23,800 bases of DNA from a virus (taxonomy: Duplodnaviria > Heunggongvirae > Uroviricota > Caudoviricetes): IMG/VR virus record IMGVR_UViG_2663763471_000001. One strand, 5' to 3'. Both the position numbers and the translations under genes were made by a program. A model generated the notes under the pieces. It was not told where the DNA came from and ran no database searches. It saw only the letters and a list, made by a program, of their open reading frames with translations. This document shows, one piece after another, positions 1,696 to 23,334 of this stretch. Within the stretch, counting starts at the first letter, position 1. Each line of letters begins with the position of its first letter.

Positions 1696-1786
1696 GCAGA
1701 ATATTTTGCTGAAAAATGAGGTTGGCCAACGCGGGCGGATAACACGAAGTCCTGTGAACTGGCAAAACCTAAGTGAATAAAAGTAA

Positions 1787-1825
1787 AAACCCCGTTTGTT
1801 GGCAGCAAGCGGGGTTTTGTTTTTA
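1787..1825 (+). terminator. Rho-independent terminator downstream of the endolysin
   Basis: aaaccccgtttg / caagcggggttt stem (one U-G wobble), 7-nt loop, followed by tgttttta. Confidence 0.55.
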
Positions 1826-4140: not shown

Positions 4141-4704
4141 GTGCTGACAACGCAAAAACGAAAATTTGCGCTGGCGCTCATGTCCGGGAAAAACAAAACA
4201 GCGTCAGCCATTGCCGCCGGTTATTCGGCGAAGACCGCCAGGGTTAAAGGCTCGCAGCTGGCAAAAGATCCTGAGGTGCTTGCGTTTATAGCCCGTAAAC
4301 AATGCGAGACGGTGGAGGTGGATGAGGTTCCTGTTTACCGGCAGAAAAAATCAGAGCAGGAGGATAAACCCCGTCGCCGTGAGGCGGCTGCAATACCACA
4401 GCCGGACGAAAACAATCTGGAGATGCCACCGTCCGCGGTGATGTCTCCTGGTATTGAATATATGGAGGATGGTCTTCCCGATCCGGTGAAAGCCATGGGG
4501 CGGATCCTGGTGGAAAACCTCTGCATTGATCCGAAACTGGCACTGGATGCGGCCTGGCGTCTGGCGCAGTTCACGCACCATAAAAAAGGGGATACCGGGA
4601 AAAAATCGGCAAAAGGTGATGCCGCGAAAAAAGCGGCTAACCGTTTTGCGGTGCCACCGCCCCCCCGACTGGTGGTGAATAACGATAATGAGGGCAACGG
4701 ATGA
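4141..4704 (+). CDS. Terminase small subunit
   Basis: GTG start with SD gggaggagg. N-terminal HTH-like segment (ASAIAAGYSAKTARVKGSQLAKDPEV) typical of phage small terminases. Stop overlaps the terL start. Confidence 0.8.
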   Translation: MLTTQKRKFALALMSGKNKTASAIAAGYSAKTARVKGSQLAKDPEVLAFIARKQCETVEVDEVPVYRQKKSEQEDKPRRREAAAIPQPDENNLEMPPSAVMSPGIEYMEDGLPDPVKAMGRILVENLCIDPKLALDAAWRLAQFTHHKKGDTGKKSAKGDAAKKAANRFAVPPPPRLVVNNDNEGNG

Positions 4705-6362
4705 TACCTGTATGGAGCACAGCCTGCCCGGACTGGGCAGAGCGCCTGAAAAAGGGGCTGTCGATTATTCCGGATCCGATTTATCCGGACGAGGCCGCAC
4801 ATGCCCTGGCGATTTTTAAACAACTGCGGATTGTGGATGCACCTGGTAGCCCTACGTTCGGGGAGTCCTGTGCACCGTGGGTGTTTGACCTGGTGGCGGC
4901 CCTGTTTGGCTCCTACGATGCGCAGACCGGTGTACGCCATATCAAGGAAGTTTTTATCCTTATCCCCAAGAAAAACTCGAAGTCCACGCTGGCCGCGGGG
5001 ATCATGATGACTGCACTGTTACTGAACTGGCGGCAGGCGGCGGGTTACACGATTCTGGCCCCGACTGTGGAGGTGGCGGCCAACGCCTTCAACCCTGCCC
5101 GGGATATGGTACGACGTGACGATGATCTGGATGACCTCTGCCAGGTACAGACCCATATCCGGACCATCACCCACCGAGTGACGGACACCACCCTGAAGGT
5201 GGTGGCAGCCGATCCGAATACGGTGTCCGGTATCAAGTCCGTGGGTACGCTGATTGATGAGTTGTGGCTGTTTGGCAAGCAGTGCAAGGCGGAGGACATG
5301 TTACGTGAAGCCATAGGCGGCCTTGCCTCCCGCCCGGAAGGGTTTGTGGTGTATACGACCACCCAGTCGAATGAACCGCCCGCCGGGGTGTTCAGACAGA
5401 AACTGCAGTACGCCCGGGATGTGCGCGACGGCAAAATTCATGATCCGCACTTTCTGCCGGTGATATTTGAACACCCTCCTGAAATGGTGGAAAGCGGGAC
5501 TAACCTGCTGATGGAAAACCTCGCCATGGTCAATCCGAATCTCGGCTATTCAGTGGATGAGGCCTTTCTGTACCGGGAGTACCGTAAAGCCCGGGAAGCC
5601 GGTGAAGAGACATTCCGGGGGTTCATGTCAAAACACGCCAATGTGGAAATTGGTCTTGCCCTGCGCTCTGACCGCTGGGCGGGGGCTGATTTCTGGGAAG
5701 AGCAGGGCCGTTGTATCAGCCTGGACGATATCCTGCGTCGTGCTGATGTGGTGACGGTGGGGATTGACGGCGGAGGGCTGGATGATCTGCTGGGGATGTA
5801 TGTGATTGGGCGTGACCGGGAGACCCGCGAATGGCTGGGCTGGGGCCATGCCTGGGCGCATGAAACCGCGGTGGTCCGACGGAAGAGCGAGGCGTCCCGG
5901 TTTCAGGATCTTGTTGCCTGTGGAGATATGACCATTGTCCGGCGTGTCGGGGATGACACGGCGGAAGTGGCGGAATATGTGCGTCGCATTCATGAGGCTG
6001 AGTTACTGGACCATATCGGTATTGACCCGTCAGGGGTGGGGCAGATTCTGGATTCACTGGCGGAAGCCGGGATCCCCGACGGAATTGTGGTGGGGATAAG
6101 CCAGGGCTGGAAACTGGGCGGGGCCATTAAAACCACCGAGCGCAAACTGGCTGAAGGGGTGCTGGTGCATGGTGACCAGCCCCTGATGGCCTGGTGTGTC
6201 GGCAATGCCCGGGTGGAGCCTAAAGGTAACGCCATTCTTATCACCAAACAGGCCAGTGGACGGGGAAAAATTGACCCGCTGATGGCGCTGTTCAATGCGG
6301 TCTCCCTGATGTCCCTTAACCCGGAACCGAAAAAGAAAGAATATGCGGTTTTTTTCATATAA
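4701..6362 (+). CDS. Terminase large subunit (Terminase_1-like)
   Basis: 553 aa. Walker A-like ILIPKKNSKST in the N-terminal ATPase part and a C-terminal nuclease region. ATGA overlap with terS. Confidence 0.9.
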   Translation: MIPVWSTACPDWAERLKKGLSIIPDPIYPDEAAHALAIFKQLRIVDAPGSPTFGESCAPWVFDLVAALFGSYDAQTGVRHIKEVFILIPKKNSKSTLAAGIMMTALLLNWRQAAGYTILAPTVEVAANAFNPARDMVRRDDDLDDLCQVQTHIRTITHRVTDTTLKVVAADPNTVSGIKSVGTLIDELWLFGKQCKAEDMLREAIGGLASRPEGFVVYTTTQSNEPPAGVFRQKLQYARDVRDGKIHDPHFLPVIFEHPPEMVESGTNLLMENLAMVNPNLGYSVDEAFLYREYRKAREAGEETFRGFMSKHANVEIGLALRSDRWAGADFWEEQGRCISLDDILRRADVVTVGIDGGGLDDLLGMYVIGRDRETREWLGWGHAWAHETAVVRRKSEASRFQDLVACGDMTIVRRVGDDTAEVAEYVRRIHEAELLDHIGIDPSGVGQILDSLAEAGIPDGIVVGISQGWKLGGAIKTTERKLAEGVLVHGDQPLMAWCVGNARVEPKGNAILITKQASGRGKIDPLMALFNAVSLMSLNPEPKKKEYAVFFI

Positions 6363-6387
6363 CCCTGTTCACACTGTAACCATCACG

Positions 6388-6408
6388 AACCGCTCCGGCG
6401 GTTTTTTT
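6388..6408 (+). terminator. Terminator-like hairpin between terL and the capsid gene
   Basis: aaccgc-tccg-gcggtt stem-loop followed by seven T. Nearly identical to the element at 13873-13893. Confidence 0.4.
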
Positions 6409-13911: not shown

Positions 13912-16900
13912 ATGGCGACGTTACGTGAACTGATTATCAAAATTTCGGCAAATTCGCAGTCATTCCAGTCGGAGATCCAGCGGGCTTCCCGCATGGGCAG
14001 TGAATATTACCGGACCCTGCAGAATGGCGGGCGTCAGGCTGCCGCAGTCGCCCGGGTGCAGCGACGCGCCCTGGCTGAGCTGAACAGCCAGTTGACGGAA
14101 ATCCGCGCTTCAGCTGCCGGAACGGCGGGGGCATTTGCAGGTGCCTTTGCCACCGGACACCTGATTTCTCTGGCCGATGAATGGAGTTCCGTGAATGCCC
14201 GACTGAAACAGGCGTCGCAGTCATCCGATGAATTTTCGTCATCACAGAAAGTGCTGATGGATATCAGCCAGCGGACGGGCACGGCATTTTCAGATAATGC
14301 GGCCCTGTTTGCCCGCTCGGCAGCCTCAATGCGTGAATATGGTTACAGTGCTGATGATGTGCTGAAGGTGACGGAGGCCATTTCCACGGGGCTGAAAATC
14401 TCCGGTGCCAGTACGGCAGAGGCGGGCTCGGTGATCACCCAGTTCAGCCAGGCGCTGGCACAGGGTGTGTTACGCGGTGAGGAATTTAATTCGGTCAATG
14501 AAAGCGGAGACCGGATCGTACGTGCACTGGCTGCGGGTATGGGCGTGGCCCGTAAAGACCTTAAGGCGATGGCGGACGACGGCAAACTGACGGCGGATAA
14601 AGTCGTTCCTGCGTTAATCAGCCAGCTGGGGGTATTGCGTGATGAATATGCCGCCATGCCGGAAACGGTCTCTGACGGGATCACAAAGGTGGAAAACGCC
14701 TTTATGGCCTGGGTGGGTGGCGCGAATGAAGCCAGCGGAGCGACGAAAACGCTCTCCGGCGTGCTGAACGGTGTTGCCGGTAATATTGATAATGTGGCAA
14801 CAGCCGCGGGGGCGCTGGTTGCCGTCGGGGTTGCCCGGTACTTTGGCAATATGGCCTCCGGAGCGGTGTCTGCCACGGCAGGACTTGTGACGGCAGCACG
14901 TAATGAAGTGGCACTGGCGGAAGCACAGCTCAGGGGGACGCAGATTGCCACGGCGCGGGCAAGGGCAGCCGTGTACCGTGCACAGCAGGCTGTGGCGGCA
15001 GCCCGCGGGACGGAGATGCAGATTGCTGCAGAAGCCCGTCTGGCGGCCACACAGGAACGCCTGAACAGAAATATTGCTGCCAGAACCGCAGCCCAGAATG
15101 AGCTGAACAGTACAACGGCGGTGGGCTCACGTCTGATGACTGGTGCGTTGGGACTGGTTGGTGGCGTACCCGGACTGGTGATGCTGGGGGCAGCAGCATG
15201 GTATACGCTGTACCAGAATCAGGAGCAGGCCAGGGAGTCAGCGCGCCAGTATGCACTGACGATAGATGAAATCGCGCATAAAACGCCGTCAATGTCTTTG
15301 CCTGAAGCCTCAGATAATGAAGGACGAACACGGGCGGCGCTGGCAGAGCAGAACCGGCTGATTGATGAACAGGCCAGCCGGGTGAAATCCCTGCAGGAAA
15401 AAATCGCTGGATATCAGTATGTTCTGGCTAACCCTGGCTGGACAACCGGTGACGGATTCATGATAAACCATCTGACATCGGTGAAGACCGTGACGGAAGG
15501 GCTTTCTCAGGCAACAGAGCAGCTTGCCGTTGAGCAGTCCCGTCTGGCACAGATGCAGGAAAAAGCGCAGTCCATTCAGGATGTGCTTGCCGGGCTGGAA
15601 GACCGTCGTGTGGCGTTAATTCGTCAGCAGGCGGCAGAGCAGAATAAGGTGTACCAGTCCATGCTGGTTATGAACGGTCAGCATACGGAATTCAACCGTC
15701 TGCTGGGGCTGGGGAATGAACTGCTTCAGCAGCGTCAGGGACTGGTGAATGTACCGTTACGGCTGCCGCAGGCCACCCTGGATGATAAACAGCAGAGCGC
15801 CCTGACAAAAACAGAACGTGAGCTGGCCCTGTCCCGACTGAAGGGGGAGGAAAAAGAGCGTGCCCGGCTGGGGTATGCGGCGGATGACCTTGGTTTTGTG
15901 GGGGATTCGTATCAGGAGGCGAGACAGCGTTATATCAGTAATGCTCTGGAAGCCTGGCGTAATAACGAGGCGAACAAACCTAAATCCCGGGGTGGAAAAT
16001 CAGAGACGGAAAAAGCGGAAGACAGTTTTTCCCGGCTACTGAAGCAGCAGAAAGAGCAACTGGCACTGGCGGGTCAGAATACAGAGCTGGCGAAGCTGAA
16101 GTACCAGACTGCGCAGGGCGAACTGAAAACCCTGACGGAGATGCAGAAGCAGGAACTGCTGCGTAACGCGGCCCTGATTGACCAGCAAAAAATCCGGGAA
16201 CAGTTGCGATCCCGGGAAGAGACCCTGAAGAATGATAATGTGGCTGCGCGTGCATCAAATGAAGCCGAACTGCTGGGATACGGGCAGGGAGAACGAGCCA
16301 GGGAACGCATGCGGGAGTTGCAGCAGATCCGTGACAGCTTCCGCCAGAAGGATGCGGACCTTCAGTCTCAGTATCAGACCGGGGATATCAGTGAGGATTT
16401 TTACAGACAGGCACGGGCACAGAACGCGCAGTATCTGAGCGAACGCCTTAAGGACCAGGCAGCCTTTTATGCCGAATCGGATGCGCAGCGTGCGGACTGG
16501 CAGAAAGGCTTGCAGGAGGGGCTCAGTAACTGGGTGGACAATGCATCCGATTACGCCTCACAGGCAGCACAGCTTGCGACGGAGGGTATCTCAGGGATGG
16601 TGAATAACATCACGGAGATGCTGAACGGAAACAAAGTGGAATGGCGCAACTGGGCCTCATCCGTACTGCAGGAAATCTCAAAAGTTCTTATGAATGCTGC
16701 GATTGTCAACGGAATTAAGACGGCGGCAAACGGTATGTCCGGTGCGGGAGGATTTATTGGCAGCATTGGTGACTGGCTGGGCGGTGCGGTGGCCAATGCA
16801 AAAGGCGGCGTGTATACCTCGGCAAACCTGAGTGCGTACAGCAACAGCATTGTGGACACGCCCACGTACTTTGCGTTTGCAAAAGGGGCCGGGCTGATGG

Positions 16901-18196: not shown

Positions 18197-18940
18197 ATGA
18201 CACAGACTGAATCAGCGATTCTGGCGCATGCCCGGCGGTGTGCGCCTGCGGAGTCGTGCGGCTTCGTGATAAGCACGTCGGAGGGGGAGTGGTATATCCC
18301 TTGTGTGAATATTTCTGCAGAGCCGGAGGCGTATTTTCGTATCGCACCGGAAGACTGGCTGCGGGCAGAGATGCAGGGGGAGATTGTGGCACTGGTCCAC
18401 AGTCATCCCGGTGGGCTGCCCTGGCTGAGCGAGGCTGACCGGCGGCTGCAGATAAAAAGCGCACTGCCCTGGTGGCTGGTCTGCCGGGGTGACATTCACA
18501 AATTCCGCTGTGTGCCACATCTGACAGGACGGCGCTTTGAGCACGGGGTGACGGACTGTTACACGCTGTTCCGGGATGCTTATCATCTGGCGGGGACTGA
18601 AATGCCGGATTTTCATCGCGAGGATGACTGGTGGCGCAACGGTCAGAACCTTTACCTGGACAATATGGCGGTCACCGGCTTTTACCGGGTGCCCCTGTCC
18701 TCTGCACAGGCGGGCGATATTCTGCTGTGCTGCTTTGGTGCTTCGGTACCGAACCATGCCGCCATTTACTGCGGCAACGGTGAGCTGCTTCACCATCTGC
18801 CTGAACAACTGAGTAAACGGGAGAGGTATTCCGAAAAATGGCAACGACGAACGCATTCTGTCTGGCGTCACCGCCACTGGCACGCATCTGCCTTCACGGG
18901 GATTTACAACGATTTGGCCGCCGCCTCAGCCTGTATGTGA
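18197..18940 (+). CDS. K: Tail assembly protein K (MPN/JAMM-like plus NlpC/P60-like domains)
   Basis: Start at the ATG at 18197 (MTQTESAILAHARR…); the ORF-track start at 17936 is an extension overlapping L. HSHPGG motif and a downstream Cys-containing NlpC/P60-like region. Overlaps gene I as in lambda. Confidence 0.85.
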   Translation: MTQTESAILAHARRCAPAESCGFVISTSEGEWYIPCVNISAEPEAYFRIAPEDWLRAEMQGEIVALVHSHPGGLPWLSEADRRLQIKSALPWWLVCRGDIHKFRCVPHLTGRRFEHGVTDCYTLFRDAYHLAGTEMPDFHREDDWWRNGQNLYLDNMAVTGFYRVPLSSAQAGDILLCCFGASVPNHAAIYCGNGELLHHLPEQLSKRERYSEKWQRRTHSVWRHRHWHASAFTGIYNDLAAASACM

Positions 18941-19518
18941 ACACGGCAGCGGAAGCCATCCGGGCGCTGTCGTTACAGGTGCCGGGCTTTCGCCGTCAGA
19001 TGAACGAAGGCTGGTACCAGATACGTATTGCCGGTTATGACACGGCACCGGAGGCGGTGTACGCCCGTCTTCACGAACAGCTGGGTGAGGGAACGGTCAT
19101 CCATATTGTGCCGCGACTGGCCGGGGCCGGAAAGGGTGGACTGCAGATTGTGCTGGGGGCGGCAGCCATCGTGGGCTCTTTCTTCACTGCCGGGGCATCA
19201 ATGGCGTTATGGGGTTCAGCCCTGGCAGCCGGTGGTTTTTCTGCCACCACGATGCTGTTTTCACTTGGAGCCAGCATGATTCTGGGCGGTGTGGCCCAGA
19301 TGCTGGCCCCGAAGGCAAAAACACCGGATTACCGCGCAACGGATAACGGCAGACAGAACACGTACTTTTCCTCGCTGGATAACATGATTGCCCAGGGGAA
19401 CCCGATGCCGGTGCCTTACGGGGAAATGCTGGTTGGCTCCCGCCGTATATCCCAGGACATCAGCACCCGTGATGAAGGCGGGGGCGGAACGGTCGTGGTT
19501 ATCGGGCGACAGGGATAA
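18838..19518 (+). CDS. I: Tail assembly protein I (lambda gpI-like)
   Basis: 226 aa. N-terminal ubiquitin-like part, a Gly/Ala-rich hydrophobic segment and the …YGEMLVGSRRISQDISTRDEGGGG… C-terminus, as in lambda gpI. Confidence 0.9.
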   Translation: MATTNAFCLASPPLARICLHGDLQRFGRRLSLYVNTAAEAIRALSLQVPGFRRQMNEGWYQIRIAGYDTAPEAVYARLHEQLGEGTVIHIVPRLAGAGKGGLQIVLGAAAIVGSFFTAGASMALWGSALAAGGFSATTMLFSLGASMILGGVAQMLAPKAKTPDYRATDNGRQNTYFSSLDNMIAQGNPMPVPYGEMLVGSRRISQDISTRDEGGGGTVVVIGRQG

Positions 19519-19727
19519 AACATAAAAAAATCCCGCAGTGATCGCGGAGCTGCGGGGACAGACAAATGAAGATCAATGTTAAGGAGTTGTTTTTGTTACT
19601 CGGGCAAAAAAACACTAACGCAGCGAAATTATAAGCGCCACAGTCAGTGTGTGAAAATGTGAAGATATTCAGAATTTTTATGCCATTACCGGTTTTAACC
19701 AACAGGATTATCGGTGGGCATGAAAGA

Positions 19728-19757
19728 AAACCCCGGTATCTGCTGATACCGGGGTTT
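19728..19757. terminator. Strong hairpin (13-bp perfect stem, 4-nt loop) in the I-J intergenic insert
   Basis: aaaccccggtatc-tgct-gataccggggttt. U-rich on the + side (ctcttt) and on the - side (ttttctttca), so it could terminate either strand. Confidence 0.5.
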
Positions 19758-19860
19758 CTCTTTAGCATGGCAGAAATGTGTTTCATGCTTTTCGGGCGAA
19801 GGATATCCGACTTCTGTACGGAATGGCAAGTGGCGGTTAATTTATTCAGGGGAAGGCTGT

Positions 19861-22800
19861 ATGGGAAAAGGTGGCGGTAAGGCACACACGCCTCGTGAGG
19901 CGAAGGATAATCTCAAATCCACGCAGATGATGAGCGTGATTGATGCGATTGGTGAGGGACCGATAGAAGGTCCGGTGAAGGGACTGCAGAGTATTCTGGT
20001 GAACAAAACCCCACTGACGGACACGGACGGCAATCCCGTGATACACGGTGTGACGGCGGTCTGGCGCGCCGGGGAGCAGGAGCAGACACCACCGGAAGGC
20101 TTTGAGTCCTCCGGAGCTGAAACCGGACTGGGCGTGGAAGTGACGAAGGCAAAACCGGTGACGCGCACCATTACGTCCGCGAACATTGACCGCCTGCGGG
20201 TTACCTTCGGGGTGCAGTCACTGGTGGAGACCACCTCAAAGGGTGACCGTAACCCGGCATCCGTCCGCCTGCTGATTCAGTTACAGCGTAACGGTAACTG
20301 GGTGACAGAAAAGGACGTCACCATTAACGGCAAGACCACCTCACAGTTCCTGGCCTCGGTGATTCTGGATAATCTGCCTCCCCGGCCCTTTAACATCCGG
20401 ATGGTCAGGGAGACGGCGGACAGCACCACGGACCAGCTGCAGAATAAGACGCTGTGGTCGTCATACACCGAAATCATCGATGTGAAACAGTGCTACCCGA
20501 ACACGGCCATTGTGGGGCTGCAGGTGGATGCGGAGCAGTTCGGCGGCCAGCAGATGACGGTGAACTACCATATCCGCGGTCGCATCATCCAGGTGCCGTC
20601 AAACTATGACCCGGAAAAACGCACGTATAGTGGTATCTGGGACGGCAGTCTGAAACCGGCATACAGCAACAACCCGGCCTGGTGTCTGTGGGACATGCTG
20701 ACTCACCCGCGCTACGGCATGGGAAAACGTCTGGGGGCGGCGGATGTGGACAAGTGGGCGCTGTATGCCATCGGGCAGTACTGCGACCAGACGGTCCCGG
20801 ATGGTTTCGGGGGGACCGAGCCGCGGATGACCTTTAATGCGTACCTGGCACAACAGCGTAAGGCGTGGGACGTTCTCAGTGATTTCTGCTCTGCGATGCG
20901 CTGTATGCCGGTATGGAACGGTCAGACGCTGACGTTCGTTCAGGACCGCCCGTCGGATGTGGTGTGGCCGTACACCAACAGCGATGTGGTGGTGGATGAT
21001 AACGGCGTGGGATTCCGCTACAGCTTCAGTGCCCTGAAGGACCGGCACACGGCGGTGGAGGTGAATTACACCGACCCGCAGAACGGCTGGCAGACCTCCA
21101 CGGAACTGGTGGAAGACCCGGAAGCCATACTGCGCTACGGACGCAACCTGCTGAAGATGGACGCGTTCGGCTGTACCAGCCGCGGTCAGGCCCACCGTGC
21201 CGGACTGTGGGTGATAAAGACCGAACTGCTGGAAACGCAGACGGTGGATTTCACGCTCGGGTCTCAGGGGCTGCGGCACACACCCGGTGACATTATTGAA
21301 ATCTGTGATAATGACTATGCCGGGACCCTGACCGGCGGACGTGTCCTGTCCATTGATGCTGCCACCCGCACCCTGACGCTGGACCGTGAGGTTACCCTGC
21401 CGGAGACAGGTACATCGGCGGTGAACCTGATTAACGGCAGCGGTAAGCCGGTGAGTGTGGACATCACCGCACACCCCGCGCCGGACCGGATACAGGTCAG
21501 TACCCTGCCTGATGGTGTGGAGACATACGGGGTGTGGGGACTCTCCCTGCCGTCACTGCGCCGTCGCCTGTTCCGCTGTGTCTCCATCCGGGAAAACACG
21601 GACGGCACCTTTGCCATCACGGCGGTGCAGCACGTACCGGAAAAAGAAGCCATCGTGGATAACGGTGCCCGCTTTGAGCCGCAGTCAGGTTCCCTGAACA
21701 GCGTCATCCCACCGGCAGTGCAGCACCTGACGGTGGAGGTGAGCGCAGCTGACGGCCAGTATCTGGCGCAGGCGAAATGGGACACGCCGCGGGTGGTGAA
21801 GGGTGTGCGCTTCAGTCTGCGCCTGACCAGTGGTAAGGGAACGGATGCCAGACTGGTGACCACCGCCATCACCGCAGACACGGAGCACCGTTTCAGCGGC
21901 CTGCCGCTCGGGGAATACACCCTGACGGTGCGGGCGATAAACAGCTATGGCCAGCAGGGTGAACCTGCCACCACCACCTTCCGGATTGCCGCACCGGCAG
22001 CACCGTCGCGGATTGAGCTGACGCCGGGCTATTTTCAGATAACCGCAACGCCACATCTTGCCGTTTATGACCCGACGGTACAGTTTGAGTTCTGGTTCTC
22101 GGAAAAGCGGATTGCGGATATCAGGCAGGTTGAAACCGCAGCCCGCTATCTTGGCTCGGCGCTGTACTGGATAGCTGCCAGTATCAATATCAAACCGGGC
22201 CATGATTATTATTTTTATATCCGCAGTGTGAATACTGTTGGCAAATCGGCATTCGTGGAGGCTGTCGGTCGGGCGAGCGATGATGCGGAAGGTTACCTGG
22301 ATTTTTTCAAAGGAGAAATCGGGAAAACACATCTGGCCCAGGAGCTGTGGACGCAGATTGATAACGGTCAGCTTGCGCCGGACCTGGCTGAAATCAGGAC
22401 GTCCATTACGAATGTCAGCAATGAAATCACGCAGACCGTCAATAAAAAACTGGAAAATCAGAGTGCGGCAATCCAGCAGATACAGAAAGTTCAGGTTGAT
22501 ACAAATAATAACCTGAACAGCATGTGGGCCGTGAAACTGCAGCAGATGCAGGACGGACGCCTTTATATTGCGGGTATCGGTGCCGGTATTGAGAATACGC
22601 CAGCAGGAATGCAGAGTCAGGTGCTGCTGGCGGCAGACAGGATTGCGATGATTAATCCTGCGAATGGCAACACAAAGCCGATGTTTGTTGGTCAGGGCGA
22701 TCAGATATTTATGAATGAAGTGTTCCTGAAATATCTGACGGCTCCCACCATTACCAGCGGCGGTAATCCTCCGGCATTTTCCCTGACACCGGACGGGCGG

Positions 22801-23334
22801 CTGACGGCGAAAAATGCCGATATCAGCGGTAACGTGAATGCGAACTCCGGGACGCTCAACAACGTCACGATTAACGAGAACTGTCGGGTTCTGGGAAAAT
22901 TGTCCGCGAACCAGATTGAAGGCGATCTCGTTAAAACAGTGGGCAAAGCTTTCCCCCGGGACTCCCGTGCACCGGAGCGGTGGCCATCAGGAACCATTAC
23001 CGTCAGGGTTTATGACGATCAGCCGTTTGACCGGCAGATTGTTATTCCGGCGGTGGCATTCAGCGGCGCTAAACATGAGAAAGAGCATACTGATATTTAC
23101 TCCTCATGCCGTCTGATAGTGCGGAAAAACGGTGCTGAAATTTATAACCGTACCGCGCTGGATAATACGCTGATTTACAGTGGTGTTATTGATATGCCTG
23201 CCGGTCACGGTCACATGACACTGGAGTTTTCGGTGTCAGCATGGCTGGTAAATAACTGGTATCCCACAGCAAGTATCAGCGATTTGCTGGTTGTGGTGAT
23301 GAAGAAAGCCACTGCAGGCATCACGATTAGCTGA
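19861..23334 (+). CDS. J: Tail tip / host specificity protein J (central tail fibre)
   Basis: 1157 aa with SD ggggaagg. Lambda gpJ-like features throughout, including the conserved N-terminal region and fibronectin-III-like central segment. The C-terminal ~150 aa would be the receptor-binding domain. Confidence 0.95.

Follow-up and report, generated by a model that had tools for sequence, protein, structure and literature searches.

The small RNA gene pasB and a terminator-like hairpin in the spacer between the tail genes I and J of a lambda-like Escherichia coli prophage

The tail genes I and J are separated by 60 nt in lambda (15445-15504), and most of its relatives have 40-64 nt at this place. 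The window analysed here—a stretch of 23,800 nucleotides that forms the late part of a lambda-like prophage of E. coli—presents 342 nt between the same two genes and, within them, a perfect hairpin of 13 bp. The locus thus raises the question of what the additional DNA encodes and what the hairpin may do.

Composition of the I–J spacer

The spacer covers positions 19519-19860, beginning directly after the stop codon of I (TAA, 19516-19518), and its GC content of 0.41-0.43 is to be compared with 0.54-0.63 in both flanks (200-nt windows). The first-pass annotation had described an AT-rich insert at this place, which agrees with the ~42% GC found over the whole spacer. The features to which the text refers are as follows:

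18838..19518, plus strand: tail assembly gene I, the left border of the spacer (ORF; Pfam Lambda_tail_I over 18838-19515, E = 2.3e-16)
19524..19606, minus strand: pasB small RNA, 83 nt (ends mapped from the published E2348/69 coordinates)
19524..19556, minus strand: predicted intrinsic terminator of pasB (terminator scan and folds)
19628..19655, minus strand: promoter-like site of pasB (-35 TTCACA at 19655-19650, 16-nt spacer, -10 TATAAT at 19633-19628)
19656..19681, no strand assigned: conserved block AATGTGAAGAtATTCAGAAtTTTTAT (also given as AATGTGAAGAnATTCAGAAnTTTTAT), just upstream of the pasB promoter-like site
19677..19725, plus strand: predicted stem-loop AUGCC..UACCGGU / AUCGGUGGGCAU (folds, -19 kcal/mol), just upstream of the 13-bp hairpin
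19728..19757, no strand assigned: 13-bp hairpin (sequence and folds)
19758..19860, plus strand: leader of J with the Shine-Dalgarno-like GGGGAAGG at 19849-19856 (sequence; invariant within the window-type module)
19861..23334, plus strand: host-specificity (tail tip) gene J, the right border of the spacer (ORF; Pfam FNIII-A_GpJ at its start, E = 3e-42)

The late region of the window is ~95-96% identical to that of the Sakai prophage Sp12, and the I–J region tested is 100% identical to its counterpart in the 'PPompW' prophages and in those of numerous other E. coli. Selection on the spacer was rejected as the cause of its near-identity with Sp12, the identical block being a mosaic recombination block that runs from ~18860 to 20200 and extends beyond the spacer on either side.

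Among the 86 distinct I–J gaps collected, 51 measure 70 nt or less. The spacer of the window appears, with good probability, to consist of two parts with separate histories. According to BLAST, a wider set of phages shares only its first half (~19500-19681). The J-proximal module (19682-19860) shows an identity of at least 99% in 1442 of 1451 E. coli records as well as in each of the 13 phage records; since it is nearly identical everywhere and yet joined to pasB variants differing by a third of their sequence, it seems to be a recently spread recombining module. That the second half of the spacer could be a repeat or a mobile element was rejected, the sequence being found exclusively between I and J and without diverged copies. 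The I-proximal part is additional DNA lying between two genes which related phages have side by side, and it carries both a promoter-like site and a terminator on the minus strand, i.e. the features by which a moron (Juhala et al. 2000, cited in PMC4104026) is recognized.

A third spacer type, 851 nt long, contains an antisense gene for Cu/Zn superoxide dismutase (sodC) with its own terminator, followed by a PasB-like gene. As this type, too, carries such genes, the I–J junction is a repeated landing site for extra genes in the antisense orientation. It should be added that the minus-strand ORF of 128 amino acids (19499-19885), already doubted as a protein in the first-pass annotation, was discarded together with a 44-aa ORF of the same strand, neither having the support of a Pfam or PHROG family.

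The pasB gene and its relatives

PasB (pathogenicity-associated sRNA B) was reported as an 83-nt RNA from the minus strand of NC_011601 (1466343..1466261), located in prophage PP6 of the EPEC O127:H6 strain E2348/69 between E2348C_1436 and E2348C_1437 (Pearl Mizrahi et al. 2021, PMC8550237, Table S6). The fetched locus identifies these two genes as I and J, respectively, with pasB oriented opposite to the tail genes there as in the window. The E2348/69 spacer aligns base for base with that of the window up to ~19690, and the published northern probe AATCCCGCAGTGATCGCGGAGCT matches exactly the positions 19529-19551. The window copy is identical to the founding PasB in 82 of 83 positions. The sole difference (C to A) falls at position 27, the place where PasB-2 departs from PasB according to Zhu, Shabalina and Storz (2026, bioRxiv 10.64898/2026.05.13.724894), who cover the distribution of PasB as well. 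Judged by this sequence match and by the published experiments, the small RNA gene of the spacer is the already known pasB in its PasB-2 variant. The two loci share the I–J position, the strand, the terminator and the probe site, and in the RNA itself nothing of substance differs; the E2348/69 spacer has, however, only 240 nt and a different hairpin (CAGGCACC-cggtga-GGTGCCTG), in contrast to the 342 nt and the 13-bp hairpin of the window.

In E2348/69, PasB was validated by northern blot and found strongly Hfq-dependent, with a log2 fold change of -6.8 in the hfq mutant, i.e. an ~100-fold drop, and with 37 RIL-seq interactions, the partners including ler, bfpB, bfpI, perB, ftsZ and galE (PMC8550237). 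An Hfq-dependent RNA of ~83 nt is thus documented for the E2348/69 copy (northern blot, RNA-seq and RIL-seq) and, by other work, for the Sakai relatives described below; the window copy may behave alike. PasB is absent from Rfam, no family of which reaches its gathering threshold anywhere in the window, and among the E. coli records listed, RefSeq annotates no feature under the match to the spacer. Of the 5,426 complete genomes of E. coli, ~1,600 nevertheless contain this spacer, so that a validated regulator escapes automated annotation.

A small RNA gene had indeed been proposed for this spacer; its presence was borne out, its supposed layout was not. The gene lies on the minus strand (19606-19524), converging on I, and ends at its own terminator (19532-19556 plus U7) rather than at the 13-bp hairpin. 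That terminator is formed by a 7-bp stem, CCCGCAG/CTGCGGG (19550-19556 with 19532-19538), an 11-nt loop and a U7 tract (19530-19524) reaching within 6 nt of the I stop codon; the scan places it at 19548-19524. Instead of the promoter-like sequences suggested near 19590-19640, the consensus scan detected no sigma-70-like promoter on the plus strand of the spacer, that stretch included; the strong site is on the minus strand at 19655-19628, where TTCACA-16-TATAAT, with 11 of 12 positions, scores higher as a sigma-70 match than any other site in the first 20 kb of the window. Most variants have TATAAT, AATAAT or TATCAT as the -10 hexamer at this position. The assignment of this site to pasB is nonetheless a putative one. 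A start predicted from TATAAT falls near G19621 and would yield a primary RNA of 98 nt, whereas the published 5' end equals position 19606, 15 nt downstream, so that either the 98-nt primary RNA is trimmed in its U-rich leader or the promoter assignment is wrong. A weaker conserved element, TAnnnT at 19617-19612, is a possible alternative -10.

Just upstream of the promoter-like site, the block 19656-19681 is invariant in 30 of 32 distinct spacers, although the RNA bodies are 60-68% identical. Its core TGTGAagatatTCAGA (19658-19673) is the sole match to TGTGAN6TCACA in the window, with one mismatch; with 0.7 such matches expected by chance, it is not significant by itself. The centre of this core would lie at -44.5 from the predicted start or at -59.5 from the published 5' end, neither being a canonical distance for CRP sites (near -41.5 or -61.5). 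The core resembles a CRP site, but it could equally be an A/T-rich UP element. The level of PasB is higher in the 'nonactivating' condition, in which Spf is ~5-fold lower; since Spf is repressed by CRP-cAMP, the opposite behaviour of the two RNAs fits an activation of pasB by CRP, short of proof.

The gene also has relatives under other names. Three RNAs of the Sakai strain (EHEC O157:H7)—EcOnc22, EcOnc23 and EcOnc24—were assigned to the prophages Sp15, Sp14 and Sp11, respectively (Tree et al. 2014, PMC4104026 Table S2), the Sp15 RNA being ~85 nt long and destabilised without Hfq (PMC4104026). All three map to I–J gaps, and the northern probe used in that study (GGGAGAGAACGATGAAGATTAAC...) falls in the PasB-like RNA of Sp11/14/15, just 5' of its terminator. 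Common to them and to the pasB of the window are the I–J position and the strand, the stem of the terminator, the motif AAUCUUC and an A-rich stretch; they differ from it in the RNA body (~65% identical) and by a 6-nt deletion. From these sequence features, EcOnc22/23/24 of EHEC and PasB of EPEC are to be regarded as one family, a link stated in neither PMC8550237 nor PMC4104026, as far as their accessible parts go.

The printed coordinates of EcOnc24 would, taken literally, place an antisense RNA over the second hairpin in Sp11. This was rejected: the printed coordinates of AgvB1 lie ~136-143 nt below those of the current Sakai record, in accordance with an older genome version, and since there is this offset and the probe is located in the PasB-like RNA, such an antisense RNA is left without evidence. 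The EcOnc51 locus, where two similar terminators are 150 nt apart, is ambiguous as a check of the offset.

In total, 19 distinct PasB-like RNA sequences were found in the 32 distinct pasB-bearing spacers, the classes of RNA bodies being the 60-68% identical ones mentioned above when compared with the window copy. All of them keep the A-rich (AAN)n stretch, AAUCUUC, the stem CCCGCAG/CUGCGGG and a U6-8 tract, the loop being variable. The seed of PasB has been proposed just upstream of the terminator (bioRxiv 10.64898/2026.05.13.724894), and the invariant AAUCUUC region just 5' of the terminator is likely to be that seed, in line with the proposal. With bodies so different and with the motif, the A-rich stretch, the terminator and the upstream block in common, the PasB/EcOnc family narrows the search for both the seed and the regulatory site.

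Like the morons of lambdoid phages, the pasB insert has its own promoter-like site and terminator and is expressed from the prophage. AgvB and AsxR are, similarly to PasB, Hfq-binding prophage sRNAs, but they occupy the PR'-proximal moron site and have no sequence relation to pasB, which lies in the tail module and antisense to the operon. An identity with AgvB (anti-GcvB), guessed from a CA-rich stretch, was rejected for that different site and because no Rfam family reaches its threshold.

Terminator-like hairpins in the I–J gaps

The 13-bp hairpin itself was found exactly as the first-pass annotation had described it, with T-rich flanks on both strands. It reads AAACCCCGGTATC-tgct-GATACCGGGGTTT, i.e. 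13 perfect pairs closed by a 4-nt loop, with ~-24 kcal/mol on either strand, and its tails are TTTCTCTTT on the plus strand (19758-19766) and TTTTCTTTC on the minus strand (19727-19719). No other perfect hairpin of at least 10 bp (loop 3-8) occurs in the 23.8 kb of the window, and 100 shuffles under a first-order Markov model yielded 0.06 stems of at least 10 bp per sequence and none of at least 12 bp. With A-T pairs counted as tail, its terminator form consists of 10 core pairs, 7 of them G-C (CCCCGGTATC/GATACCGGGG), a loop of 4 and a tail with 6 of 8 T on the plus strand and 5-7 of 8 on the minus strand. The plus-strand T-tract is interrupted, and the hairpin is equally terminator-like on the minus strand. 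A standard terminator scan missed it because the T-tract is absorbed into the stem. Relaxed Rfam hits over the hairpin (SSRC34_2, STnc310, CopA-like and others) are far below threshold and match generic terminators only.

Within the J-proximal module there is little variation to work with: no diverged relatives were found in the phage or E. coli collections, and covariation therefore lends the hairpin no support. The predicted stem-loop at 19677-19725 is likewise confined to the window-type module and is almost without sequence variation. A few rare copies of the module have lost the hairpin, one by a 47-nt deletion, one by a G-to-A change in the 3' arm and one by truncation of that arm.

The comparison with other phages concerns the position rather than the sequence. 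Under one uniform rule, a terminator-like hairpin on the sense (tail-gene) strand occurs in 84 of 86 distinct lambdoid I–J gaps, the window type included, so that such a hairpin is near-universal in lambda-like phages, lambda itself among them. The short gaps have a sense-strand hairpin with a T-run in 50 of 51 cases, while the antisense strand also scores in only 20 of 51. The hairpins comprise at least eight unrelated stem sequences, which differ completely between lineages. The 60-nt gap of lambda holds AAACCGCC-tgcg-GGCGGTTTTGTC. In phages whose I proteins are only 34-45% identical to that of the window, the gaps have other stems, for instance AAAGGTGC-ttcg-GCACCTTTTTTT, AACCCAGC-tcagg-GCTGGGTTTTTT, GGCTGCC-tccg-GGCAGCTTTTTTT, GGGCGC-ttct-GGCGCCCTTTTTT and AACCCGCC-cc-GGCGGGTTTTTTT, and in each case a run of T6-7 comes after the stem, directly ahead of the start of J.

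The second pasB-linked spacer type (E2348 PP6 and Sakai Sp11/14/15) has the hairpin ACAGGCA(C/T)CC-loop-GG(G/A)TGCCTGT, whose T-run is confined to the sense strand. One of its pairs shows a replacement series C-G, U-G and U-A; as a test of the strand, the wobble pairs are weak, 97.1% of the cells being paired against 95.7%, with 76 of 500 shuffles doing as well. The 851-nt sodC-type spacers are without a convincing sense terminator near J.

The hairpin of lambda resembles that of the window in being GC-rich, in its 4-nt loop and in being preceded by an A-tract and followed by a T-tract when read along the tail-gene strand. The window hairpin departs from the lambda type by its 13 bp against 6-8, by its distance from J of ~100 nt against 10-20 and by being fully two-sided. 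No sequence similarity exists between it and the hairpins of other phages, the likeness being one of position and form; since it lies so far from J, it is by position that it is equated with the conserved terminator. Taken together, the comparative data favour the tail-gene strand as the one on which the hairpin would function, and it is most likely the local representative of a conserved I|J intrinsic terminator of the late operon. No paper describing an I|J terminator or the function of the lambda I–J hairpin was found in the literature search.

Explanations of the hairpin and of the spacer as a whole

Based on the above results, the explanation that we consider the probable one combines a pasB moron with a J-proximal hairpin acting as the I|J terminator. 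The segment from 19524 to ~19681 would be a small moron that entered directly behind the stop codon of I, carrying pasB opposite to the tail genes and bringing its own promoter, the conserved upstream block and a terminator whose U-tract abuts the end of I. It would have landed between that stop codon and the I|J terminator, of which the 13-bp hairpin is presumably the local version, kept between I and J by lambda-like phages. In the lysogen, PasB would be produced independently of the silent late operon and, together with Hfq, would base-pair in trans with host and virulence mRNAs. Ordinary polymerase, including any that fires divergently from the pasB promoter region or leaks in from upstream, would stop at the hairpin, which would keep J and the genes downstream of it switched off in the lysogen. 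Q-modified lambda polymerase reads through terminators in late transcription. Since it does so, the hairpin should be harmless in lytic growth, when Q-modified RNA polymerase coming from PR' would pass it. With A- and T-tracts on both sides, the hairpin could also stop antisense transcription before it enters pasB.

Several other roles of the hairpin have to be weighed against that of the I|J terminator. It might end a second sRNA of the tail-gene strand, ~100 nt in length (~19665 to 19765), divergent from the pasB promoter region and composed of a U-rich 5' stretch, the stem-loop 19677-19725 and the terminator, which in the E2348/Sp11-type spacer would shrink to ~60 nt. The 111-nt stretch 19660-19770 (plus strand) does fold as a stem-loop followed by a terminator, the usual layout of sRNAs, with a fold z of -5.8; both pasB-linked spacer types have a sense terminator 50-95 nt downstream of the block 19656-19681, and a weak extended -10 (TGtGAAAAT, 19650-19658) can be read. 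The last is, however, not kept in the Sp11-type (GGAAAT), the scan revealed no plus-strand promoter, and short gaps devoid of pasB have the same terminator with no room for a promoter. Moreover, no tail-strand Hfq-CRAC peak is listed in any I–J gap of Sakai, which has both spacer types, and PasB is the only new EPEC sRNA given here, with no other I–J intergenic entry, in the accessible part of the tables of PMC8550237. A second sRNA is therefore held to be unlikely. An equally low probability is given to a role on the minus strand, by which the hairpin would either shield the pasB promoter from antisense transcription arising within J or end an RNA of ~70 nt starting from 19829-19800. The two strands do not differ in stem energy and the minus-strand tail TTTTCTTTC is on a par with that of the plus strand, a promoter-like TTGCCA-18-TATCCT (9/12) is present at 19829-19800, the corresponding 78-nt minus-strand stretch folds to -32 kcal/mol, and the 851-nt spacers hold the terminator of the antisense sodC at the same position upstream of pasB. 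Promoter matches of 9/12 are, on the other hand, at the chance level (9 found against 10.9 expected in the first 20 kb), the sister hairpin of the E2348/Sp11-type and most of the short gaps are without a minus-strand T-run, and the list of Hfq-CRAC peaks has none for the Sp12 spacer, in which the window-type module is present. The earlier suggestion of a terminator for antisense transcription is possible, though unlikely, and for this two-sided variant only; the comparative data favour the tail-gene strand.

Two further roles appear considerably less probable. That the hairpin belongs to a regulated attenuator or riboswitch-like leader tuning J, as had also been suggested, is very improbable: a terminator upstream of J and the stem-loop 19677-19725 could in principle form alternative structures, but both the minimum-energy and the centroid fold show two separate hairpins, and a 6-bp pairing through the CCGG cores, sketched by eye, is the only alternative. 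None of the Rfam leaders or riboswitches attains its threshold in the window, and the relatives possess a bare hairpin with a T-run and no upstream partner. Still less credence is given to a small protein encoded by the J-proximal module in a 66-aa ORF (19680-19880, plus strand). A gene caller annotated this ORF as a hypothetical protein in phage ASU11 (ON416862.2); it has, however, no Shine-Dalgarno sequence, crosses the terminator hairpin, overlaps the J start and gives no significant Pfam or PHROG match, and RefSeq annotates nothing there among the E. coli records listed.

As regards the spacer as a whole, its two parts might also be joined functionally, with the I–J junction as a control point working in both directions; together with the variant in which the J-proximal module encodes a second sense sRNA divergent from pasB, this has only a small probability in our estimate. 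PasB, complementary over its full length to the I–J part of the late mRNA, might then act in cis during induction, either by RNase III-type cleavage or by transcription collision, the terminator might render J, as the host-range gene, and the conversion genes that follow it strictly Q-dependent, and the invariant CRP-like block might link the node to the carbon status.

Returning to the preferred explanation, that of a pasB moron beside an I|J terminator, the pasB part of it is already known, the main content of the spacer being a published sRNA and little of it new. The hairpin is best read as a commonplace terminator within the operon, belonging to a widely conserved type for which the literature searched offered no description; if it truly terminates, it would constitute a checkpoint by which J is kept off as long as Q is absent. 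Three side results deserve to be retained, namely the link between EcOnc22-24 and PasB, the invariance of the block that precedes pasB and the near-universal presence of a terminator-like hairpin in the I–J gap. Further sense-strand terminator-like hairpins are found in other long gaps of the late operon of the window, namely at 6387-6404 and 12417-12431.

Mosaic origin of the spacer and its Sakai relatives

The spacer between the tail genes I and J lies within a stretch, 18860-20200, over which the divergence between the window and prophage Sp12 of EHEC O157:H7 Sakai falls from about 5-14% to below 0.5%. This stretch takes in most of I, all of the spacer and the initial 340 nt of J; its edges are sharp, and the divergence profile marks it as a clear mosaic recombination block. 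Concerning three further Sakai prophages, their I-J spacers are identical in sequence:

I-J spacers of Sakai prophages (locus coordinates)
L002:4673-4912, Sp11, 240 nt
L005:1023-1262, Sp14, 240 nt
L004:992-1231, Sp15, 240 nt

The family of RNAs related to PasB, the published Hfq-dependent sRNA, includes EcOnc22/23/24 of Tree et al. 2014 (PMC4104026); it should be pointed out that the peak coordinates in that study are about 136-143 nt below those of the current NC_002695.2. The PasB entry of Pearl Mizrahi Table S6 (PMC8550237) names no EHEC homologue.

The sodC-type spacer and a possible pasB promoter element

An I-J spacer of 851 nt, found in the comparison loci L079, L082 (2182-3032) and L096, contains an antisense gene for a Cu/Zn superoxide dismutase (sodC-like), which has a terminator of its own. 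A PasB-like RNA gene comes next on the same strand. In all three loci this spacer lacks both the conserved block found upstream of the pasB promoter-like site (window 19656-19681) and a convincing sense terminator near J. Its PasB variant has no TATAAT box and carries a TAnnnT element, which is followed by a T-run and kept at aligned positions in all PasB variants, as TAGTGT, TAATTT, TACTTT, TACAGT or TAATGT. In the window the element occupies 19612-19617 (-); the 5' end published for PasB is 7 nt downstream of it, and the element may serve as an alternative -10 of pasB.

Further hairpins in the late operon

Additional terminator-like hairpins, all on the sense strand, occur elsewhere in the window:

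Terminator-like hairpins
1786-1818 (+), longer gap of the late operon
6387-6404 (+), GAACCGCtccgGCGGTTT+TTTTATTTT, 3' of ORF 4701-6362
12374-12390 (+), longer gap of the late operon
12417-12431 (+), CCCGCcgcgtGCGGG+TTTTTTATTA, 5' of ORF 12454-13170

Their presence in longer gaps suggests that in-operon terminators are a general pattern of the late operon.

Doubtful records and a tandem repeat

The 66-aa "hypothetical protein" annotated in phage ASU11 (ON416862.2, 8112-8312; window 19680-19880) spans both the terminator hairpin and the start of J, and is probably a gene-caller artefact. Three contigs (L087, L089 and L096) are labelled Streptomyces flavalbus, Parendozoicomonas haliclonae and a Clostridiales MAG. 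The I proteins encoded on them are of the E. coli type (90-98% identity), two of the three also carry the pasB spacer, and all are probably contaminants within their assemblies.

A run of N (masked bases) is present at 10221-10231, within the long ORF 8575-10920 (+). Sp12 aligns to this region three times, with the copies about 160 nt apart, and the region is therefore a tandem repeat.
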